From Fimbriimonadales bacterium (GTDB lineage Bacteria; Armatimonadota; Fimbriimonadia; Fimbriimonadales; GBS-DC), in the NCBI GenBank assembly GCA_025061985.1, contig JANXAW010000027.1, positions 4,499 through 68,498 of the forward strand: a stretch of DNA of 64,000 bases, written 5' to 3'. The notes under the pieces were generated by a model that saw only the letters and a program-made list of their open reading frames with translations, did not search any database and was not told the DNA's origin. Of the stretch, positions 1,698-55,393 are shown piece after piece. A program made the translations under genes and the position numbers. Numbering within the stretch: the first letter of the stretch is position 1; each line of letters begins with the position of its first letter.

Positions 1698-2279
1698 ATG
1701 CAACGGATTGCCATCACGGGTGGCGTCGCCGAGGGCAAGACAACCGTCTTGCGAATGTTCGAGGCGCTTGGCGCTGCTACGCTTAGCAGCGACGCGCTGG
1801 CTGCGACGCTCCTCCATCCAGGGACGGACCTATGGAAACGCCTTGTTGGGGAGTTTGGAGAAAGGATTTTGAACGCCGATGGCACGGTAGCACGCGAGCA
1901 ACTGGCTGCCCTTGCCTTCGGCGATGTGCGCTTGCGTCGCCGCCTCAACCAACTGATGCACCCCCCCATCGTGGAGGCGATGCAAGCACACCTCCAAGCG
2001 CTATCATCGCCGCTGGTGTTTGTCGAGGTGCCTTTGCTCATCGAGGTCGCCCTTCAGGGTGCCTTCGACGCAGTGGTGGTAGTGTATGCAACCCCTACCT
2101 TGCAGCGCCAGCGGCTACTGGCGCGAGGTATCTCAGCGGAGCGTGCGCGCCAAATCTTGCAAGCACAGCTTCCCACCCGATGCAAACTTGCCTTTGCCGA
2201 CTGGATCGTGCGCACCCATCGCCCCTTACCGCAGGTGGAGCGACAGGTGTGCGCCATCTGGCAGGCACTGAACCGTTAG
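1698..2279 (+). CDS. coaE: dephospho-CoA kinase
   Basis: The N-terminal P-loop is IAITGGVAEGKTTV. The size is about 190 aa, and the position directly downstream of rpsA is typical of CoaE. Confidence 0.8.
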   Translation: MQRIAITGGVAEGKTTVLRMFEALGAATLSSDALAATLLHPGTDLWKRLVGEFGERILNADGTVAREQLAALAFGDVRLRRRLNQLMHPPIVEAMQAHLQALSSPLVFVEVPLLIEVALQGAFDAVVVVYATPTLQRQRLLARGISAERARQILQAQLPTRCKLAFADWIVRTHRPLPQVERQVCAIWQALNR

Positions 2280-2286
2280 GTATACT
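2258..2286 (+). promoter_or_regulatory. candidate sigma-70-type promoter for the envelope cluster
   Basis: CTGGCA (2258-2263), a 17-nt spacer, then TATACT (2281-2286). The aGGTATACT form of the -10 recurs at other gene starts in this window. It would give a ~90-nt leader before GTG 2381. Confidence 0.3.
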
Positions 2287-2380
2287 GAACGGCGCAACGG
2301 AATCTCTGCTGGTGCGTCGAAAGCAAGTAGGAATGGGAGACGCTTGAGTAGAACTGAGTAGTGCAAGAGGAGGCTCTACC

Positions 2381-5300
2381 GTGGTGAGGCGAATCTGGCT
2401 GTTGTTCGGAGCGGGGCTACTGCTGCTGGGATGGGCAGGCTATGCGCAGGAAGGCGCGAGCAATCTGCCAAGTGGAGATCCCTATGCAGATCGCCCTGGT
2501 CGTCATGTGCTGCCCAACGCGCGTGTACGCGAGATTCCACCCCAAAACTACCGAGTCGCCCCTTCGCGGGCGCCACAGTCGGGCGCGCGCTGGCGCAAAG
2601 GCGGTCTGTTTGATCCCAACGAGTTCCACCGCAACCTGCAAAATCGCCAGCGACGCACCCGCGCGCCGCGCTGGGACCGCGACATCACCAACTCTGCCAC
2701 CGATGAACTCCATCCTGTGTACAACCCCGGCGCAGCAAAGATCTACTTCTCCAGCAACGCTTCTGCTGTGGTCAACGGCAGGTTGGCAAACCCCACACCA
2801 TACTATCGCATCTGGCGCGGAGATATTGATGACGGCTCAGGGCCGGGGCTTGGAAACGTAGCAAACCCCACTGCTATCACTGGCGACACTCCTGACGAAC
2901 GCTTCGGCAGCCAGATTCAGCCTGCGCTCAACGAAGCAGCCAACCTCCTCGCTTACGCCAACCGTACCGCTTCAGGCAACTACAACATTGTAGTGCGCAA
3001 TCTCAGCACCGGGCGGCGCGTGGTGATTACCGCCGACAACGACGGAATTACCCAAAACCTGCGCCCCACCCTCAGCCCCGACGGTAGCTTGGTGGTTTTT
3101 GCATCGAACCGACTGCTGCCCACAGACCCTCCGGGCACCGAACGCCGCTTCCGATTGTACTTAGCCCGTACCGACGGACGCCCGTTTGAGAACAACGAAT
3201 ACTTCCGTCGCCTCACTAACCCGCCTGCAGGCTTTAACGATGTGGAACCCGCTTGGTCGCCCGACGGCACCCGCATTGCGTTTGCACGCGTTGCCAGCGA
3301 CGGCAGCAGCTCTATCTTCATCTTAGATTTCGGCACCTTACGCGAGACCCGCTGGACCAACTTCGTAGACCCCAACACGGGCAACCGCGCCAGCGATCGG
3401 CAACCCTCATGGGCGACTTTCAATGGGGTACCCATCTTGGTGTTCTCCTCCACGCGGAAATCGGGCGATCCGCACCGCATCGCAGCCCCTGCTGACCGCG
3501 TCGACTCCACAAACCGTATCTACGATATCTATCGCATTGAGGCGACTTTGCCTGAGGAGCTAGGGGGCGGCCCAGCAATTTCTATCTCTGCCGACCGCAG
3601 CACGCCCCAGCTGGCACAGCCCGATGTGCCCTACCTTACCACACCGCCCTTTGCTCCTGCAGCGGGCGCGAAGTATCCCACTGGTGCAGTAGACGAGCGC
3701 AACCGCGTAGCATACCACTCCCCACGCACCGAGGGTGCCGAACCACCCGGCCCAGGCATCCACGACCTGTGGGAGACCCAACTATTTGATGTGACTCCGC
3801 CTATTTTGGAAGTGCTACCCATCGTGCGCCCGAAAGAGGGCTTCCCAGGCGATGAGGTCACCATTCGCGTGCGGGTAGTGGACTTCCAAAGCGGTGTGGA
3901 CTTCGTGCGCGTGCAATTCAAAGACCCTGACAGCGCCGAACAAGACGCGGAAGGCTTAGAACACCGCATCTACCTGCTGTTCCCATTTGACCCGTTCTTC
4001 CCGAACCGAATTTTGGTGGAGCAAATAAGTGGCGCTTACGTGCCATTGTTTGTGGAGGTTGGACACCAAGCAATCAACCCCAACACCTACGAGTACAAAG
4101 ACCCCTACACGCTGGTGCGGTTAGGCTTTGACGGGAGCTTGGACGACACGCTACTGCTAACGCCCGTGCTCGATGGACAGGGCAACCCCACCAACTTCTA
4201 TGAGGGGACGTGGCGCACACCTGATGTGCCCAGCGACTTCTATGTGGATGTGATTGTGCGCGACCGTGCGGGGAACGAGTTTATCTACGACAATATCACA
4301 GGCTTTACCACACGCCCGTTTGTGGGTGCCAACAACATCCTGCTGGTCTCCGACTATATGGGCGGGCAGATTTTCGTGCAACACCGTATTGATGTGATCG
4401 GCAACAGCGTTGCCCGCCCCACATGGCAGCCCGTGGAAAGCTACTGGACAGACAACCCTACGGGCAAGTTCCCGTTTGACCTCACCCAGCCGCCTTCGGG
4501 AACGCCTCAAATCATCATCGGGGATGGTGCGATCCCCCACCCGCGCGTCCTGGGCGCCTTTGTGCGCTCCGATACATTAGGCGAGAACACCACCTACGGC
4601 AACCTGTATGATATCTGGCGCGTGCAATGCCGCAACCCAATTCGACCTTCGGTGTTGGCGGGCTATCTGCCGCGTATCGAGCGTGAGCCAACCGACTTGG
4701 AAGGCACTTTCCGCGACAAATTGCATGCGCCACGCATCGTGATTTGGGCAAGCCCCTACACAGGCAACCTGTGGGCAGGACCGGGGCACTTGTTAGACCC
4801 AGAGGTGCAGCAGCTCCTGCGCGACTTCCTCAACAGCAGCGGACGCTTGGTCATCAGCGGTCAGGATATCGCGTGGGCACTCACCTTGGGCGGTACTGCC
4901 ACCAGTCAGTTCCTGCGCAACGAGCTGCAAGCGCAGTTGGACAGCGATGTGGCAGAAGACATTTTCCTCGTAGCCTATCAAGGGTTGCGCCGCGAGCTTA
5001 CCAGTTCAGGGTTGGAAACCGACCCCATTACTGGCGACCCCAACCCGATTGCCCGCAACCCTGCTGCACTTCCCATCTGGGTGCGTCTGGAAGGCAACGT
5101 GTTTGTGGTTGACCGCCCAGAAACACTCCGCCTCTCCCACCCAGGCAACTACTACATCACGCCATCTGGCGACTTCATAGATGTGGTAGTACCTGTCGGC
5201 GCGACAACAACCACCCCGCTGTTTACCGACGCCGCGTGGAACCAGGTGTGGCCCGATACCGTGCTTGCCAACCCCGACAACCGCGCGCCTTACCGCTATG

Positions 5301-7885
5301 CCAGCCCCGGTCAGTTAGCAGACCAGCAGCGCCAACGCGCAGGCACCTACTATCATAACACCACCAACCGCTCGAAAGTGGTGTTCTTCTCGTTCGGAGT
5401 AGAAGGGGTCAACTCGGGCTACAGCCAAGGTCCTGCAGACTTTCTGTGGTGTCGCGCGTTGCGCAACAAGGTCCTTCACAACGCCTTCGCCTGGCTGACC
5501 CATGGCGTCATTCAGGGCACAGTGCGCGAATATAACCCCGAGCTTCGCACGTACCTCCCCCTGCGACGAGCGCTGGTGCGCGCTACCGCACTTACACCGC
5601 CCAGCATCGCTGGTAGAGTAGAAGGCTACGCGATTACCGACTCAAACGGCTTCTACCGAATTGTGGGACTGGAAGCAGGCATTTATATCGTGGACGCAGT
5701 GCGCCCTGGCTACCGCATCCAGCACCCCGAGTCGGTAACTGTCGTGGCTAGCACGGTAACGCTCAACTTGGTGATGCTCAAAGTGCCTCCGGGGCAAATC
5801 AGCGGGCGCGTCATTGACATCAACAACCAGCCTGTGCGCGGTGCGGTCGTACGCGCCACCAGTGCGGAAGACCCCGAATTGGCACCGATTGAGACCTTCA
5901 CCGACCCAGATGGCAACTTCCTGCTGACACGCGTACCCGTTGGACGCTGGAACGTAACAGTAGTAGACCTTGCCTTTGGCGGCTACCGCTTGCCTCCTGT
6001 GCAGCCCCCCGGTGGCGTGTACCGTGACGTGGTGGTGCGCAGCAGCGAAACCACAAACGTGGGCGACTTCGTGCTGGAGCCGCTTCCCGGCACGGTGCAG
6101 GGTGTCGTAACCGACGCCGATACGGGGCAACCAATTGCAGGGGCACGCATTACAGCAATAGCCGGCACAACTACCCGCGCAGAAACCACCACTGGCACAG
6201 ACGGAAGGTACTCGTTTGAAGTGCCAGCGGGCGAGTACGTTGTCACCGCAACCGCACCAGGCTACACGGCGGTTAGCGAGACCCTTAGTGTGCGCGCGAA
6301 CGAAACCACAACACTCAACTTCCAGCTGCGCCGCCTGCCACCAGGCGAGGTAGTGGGCAGGATTGTGCGTCGCTTCAGCGGCACACCTGAGCCAGGTGTA
6401 ACGGTGCGCATCTTGTTCAACGAAAGCGATGTTGTGCCATCCGTGGTTACAAACGCCAACGGCGAATTCCGGTTCACGAATGTGCCGCCCGGCGAATATG
6501 TGGTGCGACCGAGCAAGCCTGGTTTCACCTTCATTCCCAGCCAGCGCACGGTGGTGGTCGAGCCAGGGCGGCGCGTCACGGTGCCAGAGTTCAAGGCGGA
6601 ACCGTTACGCACCTTCTTCCGCGGGCGGGCCTTGGTGTCGGCGCCATATGACTATGCGCAGGATGTGCGCGCTCTCCTGAATGTGCCAGCGGACGCTACC
6701 TTCCGCTTCTTCACGTGGGATCCTGAACAGGCGCGCTATGTGTTCTATCCAGTAGCGCCTGCCGATCGGTTCCAACTGGGGCGCGGCTACTTCTTGGAGA
6801 CCTCGATAGATTTGGCTCTGAGCGTGGAGGGTGCGCCTGCGGACCGTACGCGCCCGTTCGAAATCCCCGTGCGTGCCGGTTGGAACCTCATCGGCAACCC
6901 CTTCCCGTTTGACATTGACTGGACACGCATTCAGGTGATCGACCCCGACACCAATGCGCCTGTGGCGCTACCAGTGGCGGTGGGCAAGGGCATCGTAGCG
7001 AACACCCTGTGGGGCTTCACCTTCGGCTCTTACACGCCCACAACACGCATGCGCGTGTGGGAGGGCTACTGGGTGTACGCTTACCGCGATACGCGCTTGC
7101 TGATTCCGCCTACCGCAGAAGCCACTCGCGGACAAAGCACGTCTGTCGCTGCTGCGGGCGAATGGCGACTGACCATAGAGGCGCAAGCAGGCGAATTCAA
7201 GGACCGGGTGTACCTTGGCGTGTCCCGCGCAGCGACCGTGGGTTATGACCGCGAGTATGACCTGCTCAAACCACCGCCTGCTGCGGGCGATACGGTGTAC
7301 ATCAGCATTCCACGCCTCACTTGGGGTGCGCACAGCGGTAGCTACGGCGTGGACATCCAACCCATCAGCCGCTCCGCAAGCTGGGAGTTCACTGTAGAAA
7401 CTCGCCAGCCCAACCAGGAGGTCACCTTGCGCTGGCCCGACGCTCAACAACTGCCGCGCACGGTAAACCTCGTGCTGGTGAACTTGCAGACAGGTGAGCG
7501 GCGCTACCTGCGCACCACCAGTGCCTACACCTTCCGCACAGATACCAATGGCATCGGACGCTTCCGCCTTGAGACAGCTCCTGTCAGTCGTCTGCTTCGC
7601 ATCCAGCAAGCGCAGGTGCTCGCTGGACGCGGTAACCAATACACCATCACCTTCCAACTGACAGGAGACGCTACCGTGGAGGTGAATATCCTTTCGGGCG
7701 GCAAGGTGGTGCGTCAACTGCTGCATCAAGCCACTCGTAGTGGCGGGCTGCAGCAGGCCACTTGGGACGGACGCGACCAAAGCGGCATCGCCTTACCGCC
7801 AGGCACGTACATTGTTGAGATTCGTGCGGTGAGCGACGACGGTCAGGTCGCCCGTGCGACAGTGCCGTTGGTGCTCACTCGCTAA
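2381..7885 (+). CDS. 1834-aa secreted multidomain protein: TolB-type PD40 propeller, unknown central region, at least five CarboxypepD_reg-like repeats, and a shared C-terminal module with a FlgD-Ig-like end
   Basis: GTG start 7 nt after GAGGAGG (2367-2373). Signal-like N-terminus LLFGAGLLLLGWAGYAQ. PD40 repeats (RPTLSPDGSLVVFASNR, EPAWSPDGTRIAFARV). CarboxypepD_reg repeats (GRVIDINNQPVRGAVVRA..DPDGNFLL, GVVTDADTGQPIAGARITA..TDGRYSFEVPAGEYVV, TNANGEFRFTNVPPGEYVV). The C-terminus reads ATWDGRDQSGIALPPGTYIVEI...VPLVLTR. Confidence 0.85.
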   Translation: MVRRIWLLFGAGLLLLGWAGYAQEGASNLPSGDPYADRPGRHVLPNARVREIPPQNYRVAPSRAPQSGARWRKGGLFDPNEFHRNLQNRQRRTRAPRWDRDITNSATDELHPVYNPGAAKIYFSSNASAVVNGRLANPTPYYRIWRGDIDDGSGPGLGNVANPTAITGDTPDERFGSQIQPALNEAANLLAYANRTASGNYNIVVRNLSTGRRVVITADNDGITQNLRPTLSPDGSLVVFASNRLLPTDPPGTERRFRLYLARTDGRPFENNEYFRRLTNPPAGFNDVEPAWSPDGTRIAFARVASDGSSSIFILDFGTLRETRWTNFVDPNTGNRASDRQPSWATFNGVPILVFSSTRKSGDPHRIAAPADRVDSTNRIYDIYRIEATLPEELGGGPAISISADRSTPQLAQPDVPYLTTPPFAPAAGAKYPTGAVDERNRVAYHSPRTEGAEPPGPGIHDLWETQLFDVTPPILEVLPIVRPKEGFPGDEVTIRVRVVDFQSGVDFVRVQFKDPDSAEQDAEGLEHRIYLLFPFDPFFPNRILVEQISGAYVPLFVEVGHQAINPNTYEYKDPYTLVRLGFDGSLDDTLLLTPVLDGQGNPTNFYEGTWRTPDVPSDFYVDVIVRDRAGNEFIYDNITGFTTRPFVGANNILLVSDYMGGQIFVQHRIDVIGNSVARPTWQPVESYWTDNPTGKFPFDLTQPPSGTPQIIIGDGAIPHPRVLGAFVRSDTLGENTTYGNLYDIWRVQCRNPIRPSVLAGYLPRIEREPTDLEGTFRDKLHAPRIVIWASPYTGNLWAGPGHLLDPEVQQLLRDFLNSSGRLVISGQDIAWALTLGGTATSQFLRNELQAQLDSDVAEDIFLVAYQGLRRELTSSGLETDPITGDPNPIARNPAALPIWVRLEGNVFVVDRPETLRLSHPGNYYITPSGDFIDVVVPVGATTTTPLFTDAAWNQVWPDTVLANPDNRAPYRYASPGQLADQQRQRAGTYYHNTTNRSKVVFFSFGVEGVNSGYSQGPADFLWCRALRNKVLHNAFAWLTHGVIQGTVREYNPELRTYLPLRRALVRATALTPPSIAGRVEGYAITDSNGFYRIVGLEAGIYIVDAVRPGYRIQHPESVTVVASTVTLNLVMLKVPPGQISGRVIDINNQPVRGAVVRATSAEDPELAPIETFTDPDGNFLLTRVPVGRWNVTVVDLAFGGYRLPPVQPPGGVYRDVVVRSSETTNVGDFVLEPLPGTVQGVVTDADTGQPIAGARITAIAGTTTRAETTTGTDGRYSFEVPAGEYVVTATAPGYTAVSETLSVRANETTTLNFQLRRLPPGEVVGRIVRRFSGTPEPGVTVRILFNESDVVPSVVTNANGEFRFTNVPPGEYVVRPSKPGFTFIPSQRTVVVEPGRRVTVPEFKAEPLRTFFRGRALVSAPYDYAQDVRALLNVPADATFRFFTWDPEQARYVFYPVAPADRFQLGRGYFLETSIDLALSVEGAPADRTRPFEIPVRAGWNLIGNPFPFDIDWTRIQVIDPDTNAPVALPVAVGKGIVANTLWGFTFGSYTPTTRMRVWEGYWVYAYRDTRLLIPPTAEATRGQSTSVAAAGEWRLTIEAQAGEFKDRVYLGVSRAATVGYDREYDLLKPPPAAGDTVYISIPRLTWGAHSGSYGVDIQPISRSASWEFTVETRQPNQEVTLRWPDAQQLPRTVNLVLVNLQTGERRYLRTTSAYTFRTDTNGIGRFRLETAPVSRLLRIQQAQVLAGRGNQYTITFQLTGDATVEVNILSGGKVVRQLLHQATRSGGLQQATWDGRDQSGIALPPGTYIVEIRAVSDDGQVARATVPLVLTR
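6614..7882 (+). repeat. copy 1 of the shared ~430-aa C-terminal module (protein-level paralogous block)
   Basis: Aligns with 11394-12740 and 14173-15462. Shared motifs are GWNLIGNPFPF, EGYWVYA, EWRLTIEAQ, EVTLRWP, LVNLQTGERRYL, YTFRT, and the FlgD-Ig-like end. Confidence 0.8.
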
Positions 7886-7891
7886 CGCTTT

Positions 7892-9706
7892 GTGAAGGAG
7901 GAGTGTAGCGTGAAAGCAGGGACGAAACGGATTTGGACAACGCGCACCACGTGGCTTGGCGTTTTGAGCACGATAGCCATAAGCGTGCTGTATCCTTACA
8001 GCGCTGCTCGCGCTCTCGCCCAGCAACTGGTGCAACTGCCTCGGATTGCAGTGCTGGATTTTGAAAACAAAAGTGGCTACGGCGGCGCCAGCATCGCACG
8101 CGCTGCTACGGACGCCGTTGCGGGCGAGTTCCAAAAACTACGCAAGTACGAGGTCTTAGCACGCGGTGAGGTGGAGCAACAGCTAAAAGACTTAGACCTT
8201 GCGCCACCCCTTGACCGCACGGGCTTTCTGCGATTGGGACGCGCCTTGCAAGTGGAGTCGATCGTTACAGGCGAAGTGAACGTTGTGAACTTTGTGGGCA
8301 GCCCCAAGCAAGCCCAAGTTGTGCTCACCGTGCGCGTGATCGATGTCGCCTCAGGCGAACCTGTCAATGGGGCGGTCGCTACAGGCTACAGCAACCGCCG
8401 CCCCGGCTATAGCGGGGATGATGACACCTTAGTGCAGGAAGCCGTGCGCAATGCTGCTTTTGAAGCAGTGCGCACCATCAACAACTACACCATCCCCGAA
8501 GCGACAGTGCTAACCACGCGCGCGGGCAAAGAGGTACTCCTCAATCGCGGCATCCGCGGTGGACTGCAACCAGGCATGGAGATGATCGTCATCCGCCGCG
8601 GCGAGGAAGTAGGGCGCATCCGTGTGGTACAAGTGTCTGATAGCGATGCCATAGCTGAGATTATCGACTTTGGACGCGGTATTCAAAGCGAAGACCGCGC
8701 ACGCGCTATTTTCCGCGTGCCGACTGTGCGAGTGAAGCCAAGTGGTAGAGTAGTCACTGAGCGTCCGCGTCCGCGTGGGCAGGGTAATCCGCTGTTGCGC
8801 GCGCTCGGTCCCCTGTTGGTGGTTGGGCTGATTGCGTTCGGAGTTGCCCGCGCTGCCTCGGGGGGCAATACGCCCGTAGAGCGCGTGATCGCCGAAGCGG
8901 GCGCCGATGCCAACTTCGAACCGTTTATCCGTGTCCGATGGAACACAACCCTCTTTGCGAAAAGCGGTCCAGACCTCTTCCAGTGGCAAATCTATCGCTC
9001 CGATGTCATCGGCACGGATGAGAACGGTCAGCTCCGCCCCGTTGGCGTGACACCGGGCAATCAGAACTTCTTCATTGATACCACGGTGCCACGCGCTTTC
9101 GTGTATGTAAGCGCGCCTCGCCTGCGCGAGGGCATCGAGGACCCCGATTTCGTAGAGGTCGGTGAGGACTCACCCGCGCCTGGCGTTGCGCCCGGACGCT
9201 CCTACACCTACCAAGTAGCGCTTGTTTACCGCGAGCAGCGGTTCGCAGATGGGCAAACAATTACCCTGTTTCGCATCACTGACCGCGTGCGCTCGGGACA
9301 GGCAACAGCAATTGCCCCTGTGGTGCTGCTGGAACCTGTGCAACGCAGCGAAGATGTCAATCCAAGGTCCGTGCGCTTCAGCTGGTTAGCTGCGGAAGGG
9401 GCTAACGCTTACCGTGTGGAAGTTTCGCTTGACCCCACCTTCCGTAACCGCGCACATACCTTCGTCTCGGACGAGATTCTTTCTACCGCTGCTGGGGGCA
9501 CGCCTGTTTCCACGGAAAACATCAATCTTGAGTCTGCTTTCTTAGCGCGCTTAGGATTGGTAGGGCGGCGCGTAACGCTCTACTGGCGTGTGGGGGCTCG
9601 CAACCTCTCGGATGACCCCGGTCCCATTCCTGGTCCCGGCGGGCTGCGCTATGTGTGGAGCCGCCCGTTTGAGTTCACTACGCAAGAGCTGCCCCCTGCC
9701 CCCTAA
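7892..9706 (+). CDS. membrane-anchored protein: CsgG/LpoB/TolB-N-like domain, SH3-like barrel, hydrophobic segment and two FN3-like domains
   Basis: The probable true start is GTG 7910, 6 nt after GGAGGAG. After a signal-like segment comes LPRIAVLDFENKSGYGG...YEVLARGEVEQQL...ESIVTGEV...VVLTVRVIDVASGEPV, which is the classic CsgG/LpoB/FlgO-type pattern. Then PLLRALGPLLVVGLIAFGVARAA, followed by FN3-like VRFSWLAAEGANAYRVEVS. Confidence 0.8.
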   Translation: MKEECSVKAGTKRIWTTRTTWLGVLSTIAISVLYPYSAARALAQQLVQLPRIAVLDFENKSGYGGASIARAATDAVAGEFQKLRKYEVLARGEVEQQLKDLDLAPPLDRTGFLRLGRALQVESIVTGEVNVVNFVGSPKQAQVVLTVRVIDVASGEPVNGAVATGYSNRRPGYSGDDDTLVQEAVRNAAFEAVRTINNYTIPEATVLTTRAGKEVLLNRGIRGGLQPGMEMIVIRRGEEVGRIRVVQVSDSDAIAEIIDFGRGIQSEDRARAIFRVPTVRVKPSGRVVTERPRPRGQGNPLLRALGPLLVVGLIAFGVARAASGGNTPVERVIAEAGADANFEPFIRVRWNTTLFAKSGPDLFQWQIYRSDVIGTDENGQLRPVGVTPGNQNFFIDTTVPRAFVYVSAPRLREGIEDPDFVEVGEDSPAPGVAPGRSYTYQVALVYREQRFADGQTITLFRITDRVRSGQATAIAPVVLLEPVQRSEDVNPRSVRFSWLAAEGANAYRVEVSLDPTFRNRAHTFVSDEILSTAAGGTPVSTENINLESAFLARLGLVGRRVTLYWRVGARNLSDDPGPIPGPGGLRYVWSRPFEFTTQELPPAP

Positions 9707-9722
9707 ATCCATACGCTCTTAC

Positions 9723-9751
9723 GCGGGACGCTGGCGAAACCAGCGCCCCGC
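9723..9751 (+). promoter_or_regulatory. intergenic hairpin between cluster genes 2 and 3 (possible attenuator or processing site)
   Basis: GCGGGACGCTGG / CGAAA loop / CCAGCGCCCCGC gives a 12-bp stem with one mismatch. There is no T-run. It sits 44 nt before ATG 9795. Confidence 0.35.
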
Positions 9752-9794
9752 ATGAGCGTACCTACAAAATGGCTATTATCAGGAGGAACCGTTT

Positions 9795-12743: not shown

Positions 12744-12765
12744 GCACGAAGGAGGCAAGTACGCT

Positions 12766-15465
12766 ATGAAACGATGGATTTACGCACTTATTTTGAGCAG
12801 CGGTATCAGCTCGATGGCGATTGCGCAGGGCGGAGAATACAACCCCTTCGTGGGGGTTTGTGTGTGCCCTAACAGCCAAAATCCCGTTAGTGATGACTAC
12901 TACGACATTAGGATCAACAACGGGGTTTTGGGAGCGACTTTAGGGATCAGCGGTACCGTAACATGGCGTACGGGTTGCTTCCCGCTAGAACGAACGGAAT
13001 GTACTACGCGCCCTGCGCAAGGGAGCATCCAGATTGGTACTGCCGATGGAAGCTCCCTCATTCAGGGCGATGAGAGCGTTGCGCTCACCTCAGGCTACCC
13101 GTGGGGGGTCTACCCAGGCGGGATCTATATCTCTCTGCAAACGCGCCGCGAGGGGCAGACCCAAACCTTCGTGTGGGGACGCGAAGAGGGAGCGCCCGGC
13201 TTGCGCTTCTCCCAAGCGTGGGCTGGGGCTAGTGGCTTTTACATTCGCCAAATCTGGAACATTGAAGGTTGGGATACTGACCTGCGCATTGACCTAATAC
13301 AATCTGTGGCACGGATTAGTCTGCGCGTGCGCAATGTAGGCGACACCGCTGCTTCGATGGCACTTCGCCTCGCCTCCGACGTGGAAGTAGGTGTAGAGGC
13401 GGGATTCGAGCGCTCCGGTGCCTCTCGACCACCGTATGTTTACGTGCATGGGCAGCGCCCAATAAAGGTCTACACAGACCTGCGCGGGGTACAAATCCCC
13501 AACGCAATAGAGTTTTATCTGGGGCGAGGGATTTTGGCTGGCTCCTCACGCTACCTCCTACGCCCCACCAAAGGCTTCGAGGACCAAACACCTATTGACC
13601 GCTTAGTAATCGGCGACTGGTTCTATGTGCAGGGCACACGCATCTGGGAGCCTACCCTATTCCCTGACGTCTACATCGGGGACGTCGCTATCAACATGTT
13701 TGTGAGCCCGCGCAACTTTGCACCGGGGCAGCAACGCGAGTTCGTGTTCTACATCATGCTTACCCCTGTAGACGTTGACGTGCAACCTCCTGTGGCGGTA
13801 AGCTTAGAGGCGCTGCCGGTGGTGGAGCCCGACCTTGAGGATCTAACAAAGCTCGCAAACAACGGCGAGTTCGTCCTCGTGGCAAACGTGACTAACCAGT
13901 ACTTTGTTGTAGGACGCGAAATTGACCTTACGGACATCTCCGTAGATATCGCGCTACCTCCAGGTGTCTCGTTGGCACCTGGGCAGCGACGCGCTCAAAC
14001 AATTGAGCGCCTTGCCCCCGGTCAAACGGGCTCAGTGAGATGGCGTGTGATCGCAGACCCCACTACAGTCGGGTTTGTCACCTTCCGCGTTGCTGTGCAG
14101 GCGCCTCCTGCACCACCAAAAACGGTCTTGCGCACTGTGCTCATCTCCGCTACTGCCAGCCGCAAGTTCGAAAGCGGCTTCCAGATGGTCTCTATCCCGT
14201 TTGAGGTCAGAGGAGATGTTAGGGACGTATTTTCGACCCTTCCGTCAGCTTTTCAGGTGAAGCGTTGGAACCCTGAGCGCGAGACCTATGAGATTCCTGA
14301 GGTGGTCCGCCCGGGCGAGGGGTTCTGGGTGTACCTACCAACGCCCTCAATTGTGGCATCGTACAATACTGAGTTTCTGCGCTTCCCTGAAAATGTGTTT
14401 AGCCAGAGTGTGCCCGTACCCCTCAAGCGCGGGTGGAACATGATTGGTAACCCCTACCCCTACCCGCTGGTACTGGGGCAGGCAGTGATAGTAAGCTCCA
14501 CAAACCCGCGCCAAAGCATTACCTTCTTTGAGGCGGCGCAACGCGGGATTATCCGTGGCGTGCTTTACTACTGGGATGAGTTCACGGGCGAGTACAAGTT
14601 CACCTCCGACCCAAGCACTCCCCTGCTCCCACATCGGGGTTACTGGATTAAGGTAAATGAGGACATAGAGTTTGTCTATCCGCCGGTGTTCCTACCGGGT
14701 ACGGGGTTCGGCGGTATCCCGCGCAGCGCGCCCGAGCTGCCCAACCGCCCGAATGAGTGGCGCTTGCAAATCGTGGCGCGCACGCAAAAGGGTGTAGACA
14801 CGCAAAACTTTGTTGGCATTACCAGCAGCGCAACCCCTGCGGAAGTTGAAGAGCCGCCTGTGCCCTTGCCCGAGCGAGCCGTTGACCTCGCGATTGTGAA
14901 GCCGGGCACCGGCGCACGACTAATGCAGGAGCTGCGTCCCGTTGCCAACCGCCATCAGTTTGACCTCGTTGTAGAAGCTGAGCCAGGTGAAGAAGTTACG
15001 CTCACCTTCCCCAACTTGAACACTGTACCGCAAGCCTACCGCCTGCGCCTGCTCGACCTAAGCACGGGGCGCGCAATCGACCTACGCACCACGCCCGAGT
15101 ATCGGTTTGTCTCCACTGGGCGTGCCCGTCTGCAGGTCATTGTGGAGCGCGCTGCGCGCACAGGCGCCCTAATCACTAATGTGAGCGTGAGCAGCGCAGG
15201 GCGCGGGGTCAACAGCATCTCCATCACCTACGTGCTGGCAAGCGACGCCCAGACAAGCGTTCAAATCCTCACACCTGATGGGCGTACAATCGCGCACTTG
15301 CAGCGCGGTCGTGCTGCCACGCGTGGCGTGAACACCCTCGCGTGGAACCTGCGCGATGACGAGGGGCGCGCGGTACCTCCCGGAACCTACCATGTGCAGG
15401 TGGAAGCACGTACCGAAGACGGCCAGATCGCGCGCGTAGTACGCCCAGTGGTAGTGACTCGCTAA
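12766..15465 (+). CDS. 899-aa secreted protein of unknown function with a CARDB-like segment and the shared C-terminal module
   Basis: SD AGGAGG lies before ATG 12766. The signal peptide is ILSSGISSMAIAQG. There is a Cys-rich N-terminal stretch and an Ig-like VANVTNQ...IALPPGVSLAPGQ...LAPGQTGSVRWRV segment. The C-terminus reads GWNMIGNPYPY ... LAWNLRDDEGRAVPPGTYHVQV ... RPVVVTR. Confidence 0.85.
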   Translation: MKRWIYALILSSGISSMAIAQGGEYNPFVGVCVCPNSQNPVSDDYYDIRINNGVLGATLGISGTVTWRTGCFPLERTECTTRPAQGSIQIGTADGSSLIQGDESVALTSGYPWGVYPGGIYISLQTRREGQTQTFVWGREEGAPGLRFSQAWAGASGFYIRQIWNIEGWDTDLRIDLIQSVARISLRVRNVGDTAASMALRLASDVEVGVEAGFERSGASRPPYVYVHGQRPIKVYTDLRGVQIPNAIEFYLGRGILAGSSRYLLRPTKGFEDQTPIDRLVIGDWFYVQGTRIWEPTLFPDVYIGDVAINMFVSPRNFAPGQQREFVFYIMLTPVDVDVQPPVAVSLEALPVVEPDLEDLTKLANNGEFVLVANVTNQYFVVGREIDLTDISVDIALPPGVSLAPGQRRAQTIERLAPGQTGSVRWRVIADPTTVGFVTFRVAVQAPPAPPKTVLRTVLISATASRKFESGFQMVSIPFEVRGDVRDVFSTLPSAFQVKRWNPERETYEIPEVVRPGEGFWVYLPTPSIVASYNTEFLRFPENVFSQSVPVPLKRGWNMIGNPYPYPLVLGQAVIVSSTNPRQSITFFEAAQRGIIRGVLYYWDEFTGEYKFTSDPSTPLLPHRGYWIKVNEDIEFVYPPVFLPGTGFGGIPRSAPELPNRPNEWRLQIVARTQKGVDTQNFVGITSSATPAEVEEPPVPLPERAVDLAIVKPGTGARLMQELRPVANRHQFDLVVEAEPGEEVTLTFPNLNTVPQAYRLRLLDLSTGRAIDLRTTPEYRFVSTGRARLQVIVERAARTGALITNVSVSSAGRGVNSISITYVLASDAQTSVQILTPDGRTIAHLQRGRAATRGVNTLAWNLRDDEGRAVPPGTYHVQVEARTEDGQIARVVRPVVVTR
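14173..15462 (+). repeat. copy 3 of the shared C-terminal module
   Basis: Aligns with 6614-7882 and 11394-12740. Shared motifs are GWNMIGNPYPY, RGYWIKV, EWRLQIVAR, EVTLTFP, LRLLDLSTGRAI, YRFVS, and the FlgD-Ig-like end. Confidence 0.8.
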
Positions 15466-15471
15466 CCGTTT

Positions 15472-15493
15472 GGGGCTGGCGCTTGCCAGCCCC
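15472..15493 (+). terminator. GC-rich hairpin after cluster gene 4 (weak terminator or attenuator)
   Basis: GGGGCTGGC / GCTT / GCCAGCCCC forms a perfect 9-bp stem followed by CTTTGTG. The same stem sequence recurs at 56156-56179. Confidence 0.4.
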
Positions 15494-16211
15494 CTTTGTG
15501 GGAGGCACGACAGTGAAACGCATAGGGATTGTGTTGGCGGTAATCGGTCTGCTAACTCAAAATGCACCAGCTCAAACGCGTGAACTGGTGCTGTTTCCTT
15601 TCGGGATCGGTCCTGCAGTCCAGCCCACCGAGGAGTTCAATGTGGGCGTGGAACTGTTGAATGCACTCTATGCCCAACTCAAGCAGATACCGAACCTATA
15701 TGTAGTGCGTTTTCGCGAAACCAATCCCTCCATCCTTCGCGCCCTTGAGGAGAATCGCTTGCGTCGCGATCGATTGGTACCGCCCTTCAATGAGCGCGAA
15801 GCCGACGGTACGTGGCGGGCTGCGCGCATCGGCGCGGTAATGGGCGCGAATCTTGCCTTTGCTGGGCGCATCGAAGAGTTCCGCTACGACCCCCGAACAC
15901 GCGAGGTTACGCTTACCGTTAGCGGCGACCTAATCGATGTTGCGTCAGGCGAAGTGCTACTATCGGTGGCGGAGACGGGGCGGGGGCGTTTAGGCAGCGG
16001 CGAGGAAGACCCCAACCTTGCGCGTATCGCCGCAGTTGCCCAAGCCGCGGAGCGCATTGGTGCTGCAATACGCGCTCGATTAGTGCCTGCTGAACCCTCT
16101 CCAGCAGCCTCCGAGCCACCCAAGCGTGTCGATCAACGGAACGAGCGCGCAGTCTTCTCCTTGTTTATGCTAATCTTGGGTGCATTGTTGGCAGACTATT
16201 CAAACCGTTGA
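15483..16211 (+). CDS. small tail-anchored paralog of the CsgG/LpoB/TolB-N-like protein
   Basis: The probable start is GTG 15513, 7 nt after GGGAGG. Signal peptide IGIVLAVIGLLTQNAPAQ. The domain LVLFPFG...LAFAGRIEEF...VTLTVSGDLIDVASGEVL parallels VVLTVRVIDVASGEPV of the 7892 gene. The C-terminal hydrophobic tail is VFSLFMLILGALLADY. Confidence 0.75.
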   Translation: MPAPFVGGTTVKRIGIVLAVIGLLTQNAPAQTRELVLFPFGIGPAVQPTEEFNVGVELLNALYAQLKQIPNLYVVRFRETNPSILRALEENRLRRDRLVPPFNEREADGTWRAARIGAVMGANLAFAGRIEEFRYDPRTREVTLTVSGDLIDVASGEVLLSVAETGRGRLGSGEEDPNLARIAAVAQAAERIGAAIRARLVPAEPSPAASEPPKRVDQRNERAVFSLFMLILGALLADYSNR

Positions 16212-18154
16212 TGCCAACGCTCAAAGCTTTCACGTACGCGAAACTGCTGGCAGGGGGACTGATGTTCCTCTGCCTTTGCGTTAGTTGGGCTGATGGAGTG
16301 ATCCGACTGACGGCGTATCCTGCGGCGGCGGTAGCGGATGGGGCGTCGCAGGTGCTGATCGTCGCAGAGGTACGCACTGCCCGCGGGAAACCAGCCCCTG
16401 ATGGCACCAAAGTCGCATTCAGTGCGACCTCAGGAACATTTCGCGAAGCAGTAGTGGCGACCGAAGGAGGCGTTGCACGCGCAACGCTCATCGCTAGTCA
16501 ACTGCCCAGCGTGGCAACTGTCACTGCCACTGTGATCGGGTTGGGCGTGGTAGGCGAAACCCAAGTGCTTTTCGTTGCAACCCAGGACGAATTGCGCACG
16601 GCAACCGAGTATGTGCAGGTTCTGGGGCGCGAGTACTTAGCCTACGCAAACGAGCAACGGGTGATCGCTGCCTCTGGCAAGGAACGCGGAGCGCGAGTGC
16701 GGTTTGGCTTTACTGAGATTACCGCAGACGACCTTCAGCTAGAAGTAGACACTCTACGAGTGAAAGCGCGCAATGCCCGTCTTCGCTTCGGCTCGGCACA
16801 AATAGAGTGCATCGAACTTAGCTACGAGCTGCGGACGGCGCAAGGCTACGCGCTGGTGCAATATCCTGAGCGATGGGCTCTGGTACGCCTGCGCAATGCT
16901 ACACCCGAACCCCACGAAGCACCCGTCTCACCTGAACTGTTTCGTTTCGTAGACATTTCAGAATCGGAGCTGGTGATAAAGGCAGCCCAGATCTGGTTCT
17001 ACCCCAACGAGCGGATTCAGTTTCACCGCGCTGAGTTTTATGTGGGGGCGGTACGCACGCTGAGCCTGCCGTTGTACTCTCAAGCCCTCTGGGGAGCTGG
17101 AGTTGGCACGGACAGCCTAATAGGGATCCAGAACGGTCAAGTGTATCTCGATGTTCCCTATTATTACGCGCTAACGCCGCGCCAGATTGGTGCCCTCCGT
17201 TTGCGTACGGCTCAAGTTAGCGGGCGCACGGTGGGGGTGGCGCGTGGACTGTTCGTAGACTTAGAGCACGAGTATCGCTTGGGCACAGGCACAGGTACAG
17301 TAAGCGTGCTGGGGCTAGCGCGTACAGATTGGGGACTTCGGTGGCAGCATCAGCATTCCTTGTCGCCAGACACTCGCCTTGCGCTTTGGCTAGACTCGCC
17401 CGCCCACCAAGGGCTATACGGCTCGGCTCAGCTTACCAGTCGAGGGCATGGCTACTCCATTGGGCTAACAGTCGCTGGGAGCACACTTTGGCATGGGGGG
17501 CGGACGCGCAGTTGGCGCACAGACGCCTTCCTCGAGACGAACCCCCATCGCTTGGGGCAATTACCTTTGCGTCAGAGCGTTGCGCTTAGCGCAGCGGTTA
17601 GCCATACCCAGCTCGCTGCGGGGACGCTGCGTCGGGCAGGCATAGGCATTCGCGCTCGATGGAGCTTAGTGCCTCAGTCGCTGGGGCGCACCACAACGCT
17701 TACGGGTAGCCTGTCAGTAGGACGCTATGTGGGCAACCTGCCCAATGCAGGCTGGAGCATTATGGGCACGCTGGGAATCACCCACGCTCTGGGTGCCCAA
17801 GGCGCGCTCAACCTCACCTACGATTACGCCCAAGACGCCCTGGGAACTAGCCTCTTGGGGCAGCATCGCCTCTCCAGCAGCCTTAGCTGGAGCTTGGGCG
17901 AGCGATATGCCCTCAGCAGCTACTTCAGCCGTGCCTTAGACACAAAATCGATCAGCTTCGGAGGCGATTTCTCGTGGCGGCTAAGCCACCTATGGCGGAT
18001 CAGCACAGGATACACGTGGCAAGCCTATCAAGGGTACGAGTTTCGCGACCAAACATTCACGCTCGCTTACCGCATTGGGTACCGTGAATTGGCGCTGACG
18101 TGGTCGTCAGCCTCGCGGCGATGGAGCCTCGACCTGCTGATGGCGGTCTACTAA
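16208..18154 (+). CDS. outer-membrane beta-barrel protein, LptD/OstA-like, with an N-terminal Big_1 (invasin-type Ig) domain
   Basis: ATG 16211 overlaps the upstream stop (TGATG). After the signal peptide comes the Big_1-like ADGASQVLIVAEVRTARGKPAPDGTKVAFSATSGTF...ATLIAS. Next is an OstA-like DDLQLEVDTLRVKARNARLRF, then a long run of alternating amphipathic strands. The C-terminus ends ...RWSLDLLMAVY with an aromatic terminal residue. Confidence 0.6.
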   Translation: MMPTLKAFTYAKLLAGGLMFLCLCVSWADGVIRLTAYPAAAVADGASQVLIVAEVRTARGKPAPDGTKVAFSATSGTFREAVVATEGGVARATLIASQLPSVATVTATVIGLGVVGETQVLFVATQDELRTATEYVQVLGREYLAYANEQRVIAASGKERGARVRFGFTEITADDLQLEVDTLRVKARNARLRFGSAQIECIELSYELRTAQGYALVQYPERWALVRLRNATPEPHEAPVSPELFRFVDISESELVIKAAQIWFYPNERIQFHRAEFYVGAVRTLSLPLYSQALWGAGVGTDSLIGIQNGQVYLDVPYYYALTPRQIGALRLRTAQVSGRTVGVARGLFVDLEHEYRLGTGTGTVSVLGLARTDWGLRWQHQHSLSPDTRLALWLDSPAHQGLYGSAQLTSRGHGYSIGLTVAGSTLWHGGRTRSWRTDAFLETNPHRLGQLPLRQSVALSAAVSHTQLAAGTLRRAGIGIRARWSLVPQSLGRTTTLTGSLSVGRYVGNLPNAGWSIMGTLGITHALGAQGALNLTYDYAQDALGTSLLGQHRLSSSLSWSLGERYALSSYFSRALDTKSISFGGDFSWRLSHLWRISTGYTWQAYQGYEFRDQTFTLAYRIGYRELALTWSSASRRWSLDLLMAVY

Positions 18155-43859: not shown

Positions 43860-43875
43860 CCCAAAGGATGGACGT

Positions 43876-49072: not shown

Positions 49073-49075
49073 CAT

Positions 49076-50482: not shown

Positions 50483-50521
50483 CAGGAATGCCTTGCCTCC
50501 AGTGCGAATCTATGCTGTGCT

Positions 50522-55376: not shown

Positions 55377-55384
55377 AAAGATTG

Positions 55385-55393
55385 TGGTATAAT
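55385..55393 (+). promoter_or_regulatory. extended -10 promoter (TGgTATAAT)
   Basis: TGGTATAAT is a perfect extended -10. It lies about 110 nt upstream of the PEP-CTERM gene start. Confidence 0.45.

Follow-up and report, generated by a model that had tools for sequence, protein, structure and literature searches.

What do six consecutive genes of a Fimbriimonadales bacterium build, and does their product correspond to any described system? The genes, called here g1 to g6, lie in a 64-kb stretch of contig (the window, meaning the whole stretch that was analysed), where all six ORFs are on the + strand and span 2381-18154. The intergenic distances are 6 nt for g1/g2, 88 nt for g2/g3, 22 nt for g3/g4 and 17 nt for g4/g5, and the stop codon of g5 and the start codon of g6 share bases in the TGATG at 16209-16213, overlapping by 1 nt if the ATG of g6 is used and by 4 nt if the upstream TTG is used; g5 is translationally coupled to g6. 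The same-strand arrangement, the gaps and the overlap given in the preliminary description of this DNA were all reproduced. Tight spacing and overlap make the packing operon-like, and strong terminators are absent from the cluster interior. A sigma-70-like site upstream is kept as a candidate promoter only, because such sites are no more numerous in this region than in shuffled sequence. The N-terminus of each of the six proteins resembles a signal peptide with an AxA(Q) site, and a lipobox is found in none of them.

2258..2286, + strand: candidate sigma-70-like promoter at the coaE-g1 junction, weak, 9/12 consensus positions
2381-7885, + strand: g1, 1834 aa; Sec-type signal peptide (AYAQ/E), propellers, CarboxypepD_reg array, shared module
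7892-9706, + strand: g2, 604 aa, without lipobox
9795-12743, + strand: g3, 982 aa; signal peptide, fervidolysin-like propeptide, S8 subtilase, shared module
12766-15465, + strand: g4, 899 aa; signal peptide, 460-aa N-terminal part, shared module
15483-16211, + strand: g5, 242 aa; signal peptide, CsgG/LpoB/LptE-fold domain (aa ~50-202), basic patch
16208 or 16211 to 18154, + strand: g6, 648 or 647 aa; signal peptide, Big_1/Invasin_D3, jellyroll, barrel

The proposal that these genes form a functional unit was strengthened by their distribution: they occur together and in conserved order in more than 30 loci of divergent Armatimonadota, down to about 27-44% protein identity, so that a scattering of the homologues is decisively contradicted. 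The carriers are Fimbriimonadales, Fimbriimonadia, and F. ginsengisoli-like and other Armatimonadota MAGs, and wherever the upstream flank was read the cluster sits directly after rpsA-coaE. Among the carriers is a complete genome, AP024673.1 (locus L021). The best reading is an operon inherited vertically at the level of this little-studied phylum. Four variants, with 3 or 4, 6 or 7 genes, were distinguished: the six-gene type of the window; a seven-gene type with an added 2021-aa module protein; another seven-gene type in which a C11 peptidase is inserted and g5 has an FN3 domain; and a reduced type consisting of g2, a g4-type gene (its only module protein) and g6, to which a 590-aa protein is added in three loci. 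From these contents, the minimal invariant set is a CsgG-fold helix protein, a module protein and the barrel. In all loci read, g6 is accompanied by a module protein and a g2-type protein, and never by lpx or lpt genes. In one locus, L006, secretin and pilMNO genes adjoin the cluster.

The common element of g1, g3 and g4 is a C-terminal module of ~440 aa (425-456 aa, 29-33% identity), and BLASTP E values of 1e-33 to 1e-57 bear out the ~430-aa shared module of the preliminary description. No further copy is found anywhere in the 64-kb window.

6608..7882, + strand: module copy 1, g1 aa 1410-1834, ending ...VPLVLTR
11373..12740, + strand: module copy 2, g3 aa 527-982, ending ...RPLIVTR
14149..15462, + strand: module copy 3, g4 aa 462-899, ending ...RPVVVTR

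The module always occupies the extreme C-terminus and these copies end in an invariant ...TR-COOH; among the 148 best cluster representatives that carry the module, at least 116 have Arg as the last residue. It is better conserved between orthologues than the N-terminal parts, with identities of 53% vs 37.5% for g3 and 49% vs 39% for g4. The AlphaFold2 model of the g3 copy is all-beta (pLDDT 77.6), and the module is a series of several beta-sandwich domains, of which the last is an Ig domain like that of FlgD and of the T9SS CTD. Its structural matches (the Vpr subtilase fibril, S-layer and adhesin stalks, Ig/Fn3 strings) are generic, with TM-scores of ~0.2. The possibility that it is an already described sorting domain, for example TIGR04183, failed on testing: in NCBIfam neither the type A nor the type B sorting model of T9SS (TIGR04183, TIGR04131) matches at E<=10, and beyond FlgD_ig all three modules only weakly match the C-terminal domain of PorU itself (E 2.7e-4 to 0.013), PorU and PorZ structures being weakly matched by the module profile and model as well. 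A survey of the same 148 representatives shows few classes of N-terminal partner: S8, g1-type, g4-type, the 2021-aa type, and a further type of ~900-1000 aa without assignment. Three module proteins were looked up directly, and each lies within a copy of the cluster, as do those adjacent to distant barrel homologues; since the same holds for every module protein whose context was checked, the module is a cluster-specific domain and not a general sorting tag.

The N-terminal parts differ in how far they can be assigned. The earlier domain calls for g1 and g3 were recovered, with a C-terminal FlgD_ig in addition to each; the subtilase of g3 is Peptidase_S8 at aa 145-415 (E 3e-32). FlgD_ig is the sole domain match of g4, which had been left without a family before and whose N-terminal 460 aa match no recognisable one. 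The features of g1 are as follows.

2906..3463, + strand: PD40/TolB-type propeller blades, aa 176-361, PD40 E 2e-13
5783..6595, + strand: four CarboxypepD_reg (transthyretin-like) domains, aa ~1135-1405, PF13620 E 3e-50 in 4 stretches

The propellers, which are Tricorn/TolB-like, also match TolB models and chains of TolB and acyl-peptide hydrolase, and g1 orthologues match Tricorn_N, Tricorn_2nd and PD40; the region between propellers and CarboxypepD_reg array matches no assigned family. Part of the model of an anammox S-layer glycoprotein resembles this array. The three module proteins are probably Sec-exported, and neither a lipid nor a hydrophobic anchor can be seen on any of them.

The last gene had been described as an LptD-like barrel with a Big_1 domain, and both statements were upheld.

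16301..16579, + strand: Big_1/Invasin_D3 Ig domain of g6, aa 32-124, in 13/13 family members
16610..17086, + strand: periplasmic beta-jellyroll-like region, aa ~135-293, ~15 short strands, pLDDT 85-93
17105..18151, + strand: transmembrane beta-barrel, aa ~300-648, about 22-24 strands in the model

Big_1 is the best conserved part of g6 (57% identity in L006 vs 27% for the barrel), and the terminal residue is aromatic (…LLMAVY). The AlphaFold2 model is of moderate quality (pLDDT 73, pTM 0.42); in Foldseek the top 14 PDB matches are LptD without exception (E 4e-16 to 7e-13, TM-scores ~0.3), full-length LptD (E 1e-16) matching far better than LptD reduced to the barrel (E 1e-7), and ushers come second (E 2.5e-7). 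As modelled, the overall architecture is that of LptD. At the sequence level, Pfam LptD, LptD_N/OstA and DUF3769 match 0/13 diverse family members at E<=5, and at E<=10 neither an LptD chain in the PDB-sequence profile search nor the NCBIfam LptD model is found with g6.

The two remaining proteins, g2 and g5, had been regarded as anchored paralogues with a CsgG/LpoB/TolB_N-like fold, which was confirmed by hhalign (probability 95%, E 2.8e-8 over 145 columns) and by Pfam matches in their families; BLASTP between g2 and g5 is weak (E 0.002). Judged from these comparisons, g5 is a paralogue of the N-terminal domain of g2, and both belong to the CsgG/LpoB/TolB_N/LptE fold class. The order in g2 is signal peptide, CsgG/TolB_N/LpoB-like domain, MreC-barrel-like domain, basic patch, hydrophobic helix, FN3-like region and a PPxP end.

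8030..8491, + strand: CsgG/TolB_N/LpoB/LptE-fold domain of g2, aa 47-200, with CsgG matches in the family
8795..8857, + strand: hydrophobic helix of g2, LRALGPLLVVGLIAFGVARAA, aa 302-322, RPRPRG directly before it
8879..9703, + strand: FN3-like beta-sandwich region of g2, C-terminal, aa 330-604, weak evidence

The CsgG-fold domain is the best conserved part of g2 (68%, 52% and 37% identity in L002, L045 and L006). The g2 of the window misses Pfam CsgG (E 0.13), which matches 9/14 family members (best E 3.8e-7); some members also match TolB_N, LpoB and LptE, and NCBI labels some orthologues 'CsgG/HfaB family protein'. In the g5 family CsgG matches weakly in 7/12 and LpoB in 3/12 members (best E 3.7e-4), and weak LptE matches occur here too. 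The earlier reading of g2 as CsgG-like plus FN3-like holds for the first part, while the second has weak matches, to a PDB Fn3-like chain at E 1.2 and, in one g5-like orthologue, to fn3 at E 0.0011, together with SusE and Pur_ac_phosph_N matches and invariant columns in the family alignment. The helix of g2 is hydrophobic and Gly-rich throughout the family, and that of g5 is C-terminal (aa 222-239). The CsgG, LptE and LpoB of Gracilicutes are lipid-anchored outer-membrane lipoproteins; g5 contains no Cys and therefore is not a lipoprotein. Around both helices the basic residues lie mainly on the presumed periplasmic side, against the positive-inside rule, and the charge distribution fits neither membrane cleanly.

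A literature search found no description of this gene combination, which looks like an undescribed cell-surface assembly system, with a function that we infer from its parts. Our preferred reading, to which we give slightly less than an even chance, is that the barrel and its helix-anchored plug or partners form a platform, and that this platform exports the three module proteins, anchors them at the cell surface or assembles them there. The operon would then encode one multi-protein surface apparatus, in which g6 would be a BAM-type outer-membrane barrel, with Big_1, jellyroll and ~22-24-strand barrel in that order, g5 most likely its stoichiometric partner or plug, and g2 a larger paralogue of g5 extending beyond its helix into FN3-like domains; the Gly-rich hydrophobic helix would replace a lipid anchor in both. 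The module would be the common element recognised by, passed through or docked onto g6/g5/g2, with two candidate contact points, g6 Big_1 and the CsgG-like domain of g2, where conservation is highest, and the outcome would be a protease-bearing complex or coat on the cell surface. Cryo-EM has shown that Armatimonadota, which belong to the Terrabacteria, have a diderm envelope (PMC11535203), and Lol and outer-membrane lipoproteins are missing from diderm Terrabacteria (PMC11784454), a view that a helix without lipobox in g2/g5 fits. In Borrelia and E. coli, LptD homologues have been implicated in the movement of surface lipoproteins (bioRxiv 10.1101/2022.12.21.521298; PMC12065857). The cluster itself encodes no energy source and no periplasmic carrier. 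The jellyroll and lateral gate of LptD are adapted to lipid moieties rather than to folded proteins of 900-1800 aa, which, together with the anchorless module proteins, counts against export by the platform. The preliminary description had proposed cargo plus dedicated machinery; the unit and the folds stand, and cargo and sorting signal are putative roles: module proteins of few paralogous classes, confined to the cluster, support a sorting signal no better than a structural or polymerising role. A set of paralogous subunits of one structure explains them no less well than a general cargo tag does.

Two main rivals were weighed. If g6 and g5 were the true LptD and LptE, that is, the divergent LptD of the phylum with a non-lipoprotein LptE analogue, they would form the LPS translocon, and g2 and the module proteins would be LPS-associated or co-regulated; we consider this distinctly unlikely. 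The likeness covers the full architecture of g6, with its LptD matches, periplasmic jellyroll, very large barrel and aromatic end, as expected of a BAM substrate, and the small alpha/beta LptE/CsgG/LpoB-fold partner directly upstream, whose coupling and gene overlap suggest a 1:1 complex comparable to the LptE plug in the LptD barrel, with weak LptE matches in both families. Core lipid A genes are present in Armatimonadota (PMC5007114, PMC4072686), LptE is unidentifiable in Terrabacteria (PMC11784454), divergence once led to LptD/E being reported missing in diderm Firmicutes (PMC5007114), and housekeeping genes surround the cluster, as for a possibly essential function. However, an HMM does find the LptD that functions in a diderm Firmicute (PMC13018214), whereas g6 is missed by all the LptD and OstA sequence models, LptE models also being unmatched apart from the weak family matches; g6 has the extra, highly conserved N-terminal Big_1, g5 is anchored by a hydrophobic helix instead of lipid, and the neighbours are large secreted module proteins and g2-type proteins, not lpt/lpx genes, in every locus read. 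The other main rival, which we regard as unlikely, has three to four module proteins polymerising or stacking as an S-layer-like coat, sheath or fibre that g2, g5 and g6 merely anchor, after general export by, for example, T2SS. The few cluster-confined paralogous classes, the conservation of the module above the N-terminal parts, the beta-sandwich string with its fibril and stalk matches (PMC10657474), the S-layer likeness of the g1 array, and the T2SS and type IV pilus genes of the phylum (PMC4072686), with secretin/pilMNO beside the cluster in L006, are consistent with it. The generic level of those structural matches argues against it, a large LptD-fold barrel with jellyroll would be an unusual passive anchor, and the literature search found no S-layer report for cultured members.

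Two further readings concern membrane topology and the module terminus. A hydrophobic helix after a Sec signal peptide normally acts as stop-transfer and would retain g2 and g5 in the inner membrane, in textbook type I topology; the set could then form a trans-envelope complex for proteolysis or quality control in the periplasm, not exposed at the surface; TolB-/Tricorn-like propellers and a subtilase could work in that compartment, where the relatives LpoB and TolB_N act. This is improbable: ~280 aa of FN3-like domains of g2 would be cytoplasmic, which is very unusual, the positive-inside rule would be violated at both helices, and the outer-membrane barrel would be left without a role. Very improbable is the terminal FlgD_ig as a type IX-style secretion domain served by SprA/PorV/PorU-like machinery elsewhere in the genome, even though a common C-terminal Ig-like beta-sandwich follows N-terminal parts that are not related to each other, a protease (g3) is among the carriers, and the module weakly resembles the PorU CTD in sequence and PorU/PorZ in structure. 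The basic last residue is a further likeness, as many T9SS CTDs end in one. The sorting models are unmatched, the conserved unit is five times larger (440 aa vs ~80 aa), it is found on only 1-4 proteins per cluster, strictly together with its own barrel and CsgG-fold genes, and no T9SS component is nearby; T9SS is described as confined to Bacteroidota and their relatives (PMC5445135), a known range that does not include Armatimonadota.

The preferred surface platform also shares single traits with other systems. As in curli CsgG/HfaB, CsgG-family-like proteins are in one operon with the extracellular proteins that they would serve, but g2 and g5 are not lipoproteins and in the window stay under the Pfam CsgG threshold, the cluster has a separate large barrel whereas CsgG forms its own pore, and the partners are multidomain proteins of 900-1800 aa instead of small amyloid subunits. 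Chaperone-usher systems (FimD/PapC) likewise combine a large barrel, the second-best match of g6, with proteins ending in Ig-like domains; a PapD-like chaperone is absent, usher Pfam models match a single g6 family member (E 0.36), and in structure LptD matches g6 better than ushers do, by nine orders of magnitude in E. Inverse autotransporters (intimin/invasin) also fuse Big_1/Invasin_D3 to an outer-membrane barrel, in the reversed order, since in g6 the Ig domain precedes the barrel, which is about twice as large, has no IAT_beta match and carries one Ig domain instead of a passenger array. A renewed search of the rest of the 64-kb window gave the same result as before, with no known secretion or sorting component. 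A PEP-CTERM protein, unrelated to the cluster, is encoded at 55373-56125 of the window.

The six genes of the envelope cluster, g1 to g6, encode three large secreted proteins (g1, g3 and g4), which end in a common region of about 440 aa that we call the module, two paralogous proteins with a hydrophobic helix (g2 and g5) and an LptD-like barrel (g6).

Genes of the cluster (window positions)
2381-7885, + strand, ORF: g1, large secreted protein with module
7892-9706, + strand, ORF: g2, helix protein
9795-12743, + strand, ORF: g3, large secreted protein with module
12766-15465, + strand, ORF: g4, large secreted protein with module
15483-16211, + strand, ORF: g5, helix protein
16208/16211-18154, + strand, ORF: g6, barrel

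The intergenic spacing is 6, 88, 22 and 17 nt, and the g5 stop overlaps the g6 start in TGATG. The cluster is preceded in the window by coaE (1698-2279) and followed by a pyruvoyl arginine decarboxylase gene (18275-18766), and its GC content, about 0.59-0.61, is the same as that of these flanks. A promoter and terminator scan of the cluster found sites no more common than in shuffled sequence.

Co-occurrence of the genes in synteny was checked, as the preliminary description had suggested. The cluster was found in more than 30 loci, taken from the neighbourhoods of divergent homologues and from a scan of species-representative genomes, and these loci fall into four types.

Types of the cluster and the loci of other genomes (L numbers) in which they occur
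Type A, the window and about 25 Fimbriimonadales/Fimbriimonadia loci: g1-g2-g3-g4-g5-g6
Type B, L001, L003, L044 and L045 (g2 about 44% identical): g1-g2-g3-g4-(2021-aa module protein)-g5-g6
Type C, L046, L047, L008 and L009: g1-g2-(Peptidase_C11)-g3-g4-(g5 with FN3)-g6
Type D, L006 and L036-L040, F. ginsengisoli-like and Fimbriimonadaceae: g2-like, g4-type module protein, g6-like

All four types have an invariant core in common, made up of a helix protein with the CsgG fold, a module protein and the barrel. The named sources of g2 homologues are Fimbriimonadales and Armatimonadota hot-spring MAGs, which assigns the window to the order Fimbriimonadales of the Armatimonadota. The pair rpsA-coaE precedes the cluster in every locus whose upstream flank was read, and the cluster in this position is a robust genomic marker of Armatimonadota.

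Some lineages carry additional genes. The type D loci L006 (11949-13721), L036 and L038 also encode a conserved secreted protein of 590 aa, which has a signal peptide and matches nothing in Pfam; its gene and the 3' end of the barrel gene overlap. A rhomboid-family protease with a Zn-ribbon is encoded immediately 3' of the barrel gene in one seven-gene variant (L044, 12334-13413), and no rhomboid gene was seen to adjoin the cluster in the window or in the other loci. In one divergent lineage, a gene for a Peptidase_C11, a cysteine protease of the clostripain family, lies between g2 and the S8 gene. Members of this family cleave after Arg, and the terminal residue of the module proteins is an invariant Arg. 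Both the C11 peptidase and the rhomboid genes are absent from the window.

Peptidase_C11 genes
L046, 8678-9871
L047, 8406-9656
L008, 1287-2432

FlgD_ig is the terminal domain of all three large proteins. In g1 it comes after PD40/TolB-type blades and four CarboxypepD_reg domains (g1 orthologues also match Tricorn_N and Tricorn_2nd), in g3, an S8 subtilase, the propeptide is fervidolysin-like, and in g4 the terminal FlgD_ig is the sole recognised domain, the first 460 aa having no Pfam or PDB relative. That the three end in one module was borne out: their last 425-456 aa are homologous, with 29-33% identity and E values of 1e-33 to 1e-57, and the window holds no further copy of the module. The alignment has as invariant features a GWN(M/L)IGNP(F/Y)P(F/Y) motif, a PP pair, an RG pair and a terminal ...P-h-h-h-T-R-COOH. 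Modelled with AlphaFold2 (pLDDT 77.6), the g3 module is an all-beta chain of beta-sandwiches ending in an FlgD-like Ig domain, and the Foldseek matches of this model in the PDB are generic Ig/Fn3 strings, the Vpr subtilase fibril, FlgD and the PorU C-terminal domain. The top match, the Vpr fibril (PMC10657474), has a TM-score of 0.2 and was not taken for a homologue. Sequence profile searches of the PDB with the g2, g6 and module alignments retrieved only invasin Ig, FlgD Ig and a marginal Fn3 match, and a profile-profile comparison found no relationship between the module and g2. Sortase, exosortase and rhombosortase signals, in which a motif, a transmembrane helix and a basic tail are expected at the C-terminus, were also rejected for g1, g3 and g4, because these proteins lack a hydrophobic tail and end (...TR) in an Ig domain that is folded.

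A word-indexed search with the module gave only 19 mostly fragmentary matches, and an exhaustive profile search was used in its place. It retrieved 2822 cluster representatives at E<=1e-30, most of which span the whole module at the extreme C-terminus. The N-terminal partners of the best 148 representatives are S8 (62), g4-type (16), g1-type (15) and others (55), the last comprising fragments, arrays of FlgD_ig repeats, divergent S8 proteins, members of the 2021-aa class and proteins of about 900-1000 aa of no recognised kind; at least 116 of these 148 end in Arg. The three module proteins that were looked up directly all belong to a copy of the cluster, as do those encoded next to distant homologues of the barrel, and between orthologues the module is more conserved than the N-terminal parts.

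The description of g6 as LptD-like came from sequence inspection, and structure comparison upheld it, the 14 best Foldseek matches in the PDB all being LptD (E 4e-16 to 7e-13). In the AlphaFold2 model (pLDDT 73.4, pTM 0.42), a signal helix and an Ig domain are followed by about 15 short strands at aa 135-293 (pLDDT 85-93) and by a barrel that has about 22-24 strands and the C-terminus ...MAVY. This is the arrangement that marks LptD, in which an N-terminal periplasmic beta-jellyroll is joined to a barrel of over 20 strands at the C-terminus. The next tier of matches, at about 1e-7, consists of barrel-only LptD entries and the ushers FimD/PapC, and since full-length LptD scores far above the barrel-only entries, the comparison indicates that the modelled jellyroll is matched too, and not the barrel alone. 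At the sequence level, none of 13 diverse g6 family members matches LptD (PF04453) or LptD_N/OstA (PF03968) at E<=5, no NCBIfam LptD model matches g6 at E<=10, and the g6 profile search of PDB sequences found no LptD chain at E<=10. As modelled, g6 is an LptD architecture that carries no detectable LptD sequence signal. All 13 members have a Big_1/Invasin_D3 domain near the N-terminus, and none matches DUF3769 or IAT_beta. Comparison of orthologues shows g6 to be most conserved in its Big_1 domain and g2 in its CsgG-like domain. Two other barrel systems were considered and set aside. An inverse autotransporter of the intimin/invasin kind is contradicted by the position of Big_1/Invasin_D3, N-terminal to the barrel, and by the missing IAT_beta match; for chaperone-usher systems, the only usher domain found is PapC_C in one of the 13 members (E 0.36), the cluster has no gene for a PapD-like chaperone, and ushers are a second-tier fold match.

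The paralogy of g2 and g5 was confirmed, the g5 domain being homologous to the N-terminal domain of g2 (profile-profile probability 95%, E 2.8e-8, 145 columns). Their reported likeness to CsgG, LpoB and TolB-N came out in family-wide scans; the window copies themselves pass no Pfam or NCBIfam threshold (g2 against CsgG, PF03783: E 0.13, 12 bits, cut-off 20.8). CsgG is matched in 9 of 14 members of the g2 family (best E 3.8e-7), several of which have precomputed PF03783 matches, and the family also matches TolB_N, LpoB and LptE, with a second domain that is MreC-barrel-like. In the g5 family, CsgG is matched by 7 of 12 members (best E 0.017) and LpoB by 3 of 12 (best E 3.7e-4), along with FlgT_M and LptE. 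Both proteins fall short of LptE membership, with scores for PF04390 that are only sub-threshold (g2 family 4/14, best E 0.021; g5 family 1/12, E 0.074) and no lipobox Cys: neither has a Cys near the signal-peptide cleavage, and g5 is free of Cys throughout. They start with signal-peptide-like sequences, with apparent cleavage at ALA-QQ and APA-QT, and share a hydrophobic helix that is rich in Gly and has a basic patch in front of it. This helix is C-terminal in g5 and internal in g2 (aa 302-322), where about 280 aa of FN3-like sequence with a PPxP end follow it. An intermediate is seen in a divergent lineage, where a single FN3 domain follows the helix of a g5-like protein. On our reading, g2 and g5 belong to a single family, in which a CsgG-fold domain is followed by a helix and, in some members, by FN3 domains. 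The g5 C-terminus was rejected as a sortase-type signal: the terminal helix is present, but the basic patch precedes it and there is no known motif. Most g5 orthologues (L010-L035) end in Phe, as in ...GGSQF, ...LxxF or similar, and the window copy ends in ...DYSNR. A terminal Phe is also found in the outer-membrane beta-signal.

Tight packing, translational coupling and co-inheritance across the phylum indicate that the six work together, and the folds and signal peptides would make their products envelope proteins. The Armatimonadota have a diderm envelope (PMC11535203) and genes for lipid A (PMC5007114, PMC4072686), and diderm Terrabacteria, as a group, have been reported to have neither Lol nor outer-membrane lipoproteins (PMC11784454). 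In a lipoprotein-free outer membrane of this kind, CsgG, LptE and LpoB folds, normally lipidated, would sensibly be anchored by a helix instead. We suggest an outer-membrane platform in which g5 would be coupled to the LptD-fold barrel g6 as a partner or plug, and to which g2 would belong as the larger paralogue. This platform would recognise g1, g3 and g4 through their common tail, and the module proteins could then be exported, inserted or docked, leading to their joint display at the surface. Such recognition and display is our best explanation of the cluster, and we hold it tentatively, at slightly less than an even chance. LptD homologues have been reported in the export of surface lipoproteins (bioRxiv 10.1101/2022.12.21.521298; PMC12065857), so an Lpt chassis may handle cargo beyond LPS, and a second, distant LptD-like barrel of unknown role occurs in a diderm Firmicute (PMC13018214). 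A broader reading is possible, if rather doubtful, in which diderm Terrabacteria would have a distinct pathway of outer-membrane protein export or surface assembly, with an LptD-fold barrel and helix-anchored, non-lipoprotein CsgG/LptE-fold partners recognising, and then translocating or inserting, proteins with a module of about 440 aa ending in ...TR-COOH.

Other explanations can be weighed against this platform. The module proteins might instead build an S-layer-like coat or fibre from their Ig-string tails, with g2, g5 and g6 serving only as its anchor; that the module classes are few and confined to the cluster fits such a structure, which we regard as fairly unlikely. That g6 and g5 are a true, divergent LptD/LptE pair agrees with the architecture of g6 and with the missing LptE of Terrabacteria, but it is an unlikely reading given that no OstA/LptD sequence signal is seen at all, that g6 has a conserved Big_1 domain in addition, and that the genes invariably keep company with module genes and not with lpt or lpx, neither of which adjoins the cluster in the 22-kb loci read. 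We find it improbable that the products form a periplasmic proteolysis complex anchored in the inner membrane. A helix in that membrane would leave the FN3 domains of g2 in the cytoplasm and violate the positive-inside rule; for anchoring in the outer membrane by such a helix we know of few precedents.

A C-terminal domain of T9SS type, with the machinery encoded elsewhere in the genome, is the least probable of these explanations and a very remote one. The cluster resembles T9SS sorting in having a common C-terminal Ig domain, and isolated modules match the PorU C-terminus (E 2.7e-4 to 0.013) besides FlgD_ig (PF13860), and nothing else; but the T9SS sorting models (TIGR04183/TIGR04131, PF18962) match neither the full proteins at E<=0.01 nor the isolated modules at E<=10, and SprA, PorV, PorU and GldKLMN are not found within the 64-kb window. 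Likewise, LptDE shares with g6/g5 the combination of barrel and plug, whereas g6/g5 fail LptD/LptE sequence membership, and CsgG/HfaB operons similarly encode a CsgG-fold protein beside extracellular clients, whereas g2 and g5 have no lipobox.

Literature searches on the combination of Armatimonadota, CsgG, FlgD_ig and LptD-like proteins turned up no account of such a cluster, and neither the 440-aa module nor CsgG/LptE-fold proteins anchored by a helix were found described. Nearly all that is known about outer membranes has been learned from Proteobacteria. How diderm Terrabacteria build and use an outer membrane with neither Lol nor lipoproteins is an open question (PMC11784454), for which the operon offers a concrete, phylum-wide test case, with an LptD-fold barrel, a co-translated LptE/CsgG-fold partner and a helix in place of a lipid anchor. 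Should the three module proteins be handled by the barrel, a new route of protein export or assembly would be added, and the emerging idea that Lpt-like machines have cargoes other than LPS would be extended; if the broader pathway exists, it would be a new system on an Lpt-like chassis and a model for outer-membrane machines that use no lipoproteins. If g6/g5 are instead a true LptDE, the missing LptE equivalent of Terrabacteria would be identified. The module could also act as a surface-display tag in thermophiles.

Outside the cluster, the window contains housekeeping genes, one unrelated PEP-CTERM protein and several prepilin-like proteins, and no known secretion or sorting machinery is recognisable in the 64 kb, in agreement with the preliminary description. 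For exosortase this statement needs a qualification: no such machinery was recognised in the window, but a 250-aa protein at 55373-56125 (+), unrelated to the cluster, has a C-terminal PEP-CTERM motif (PF07589, E 2.7e-6), and because of it an exosortase system is probably present somewhere in the source genome. Three dispersed proteins have a prepilin-type N-terminal methylation motif and/or DUF1559 (24767-25669, +; 26486-27091, +; 35965-36651, -), and scattered proteins of this kind are typical of Armatimonadota and Planctomycetota. A 639-aa ORF at 29141-31060 (-) has no Pfam match at E<=1e-5. FeoB is divided between two ORFs on the + strand that overlap by 44 nt, with the G-domain at 32343-32909 and the membrane domain at 32866-34329, a split that could be natural, a frameshift or an assembly error. 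At 41514-43919 (-), consecutive genes encode an ECF-type sigma factor, a 260-aa protein with no matches (perhaps an anti-sigma factor) and a trypsin/PDZ protease resembling HtrA, a row that looks like an envelope-stress module. At 47846-51496 (+), two FHA-domain proteins in succession are followed by a multihaem cytochrome (MtrC/c554-like).
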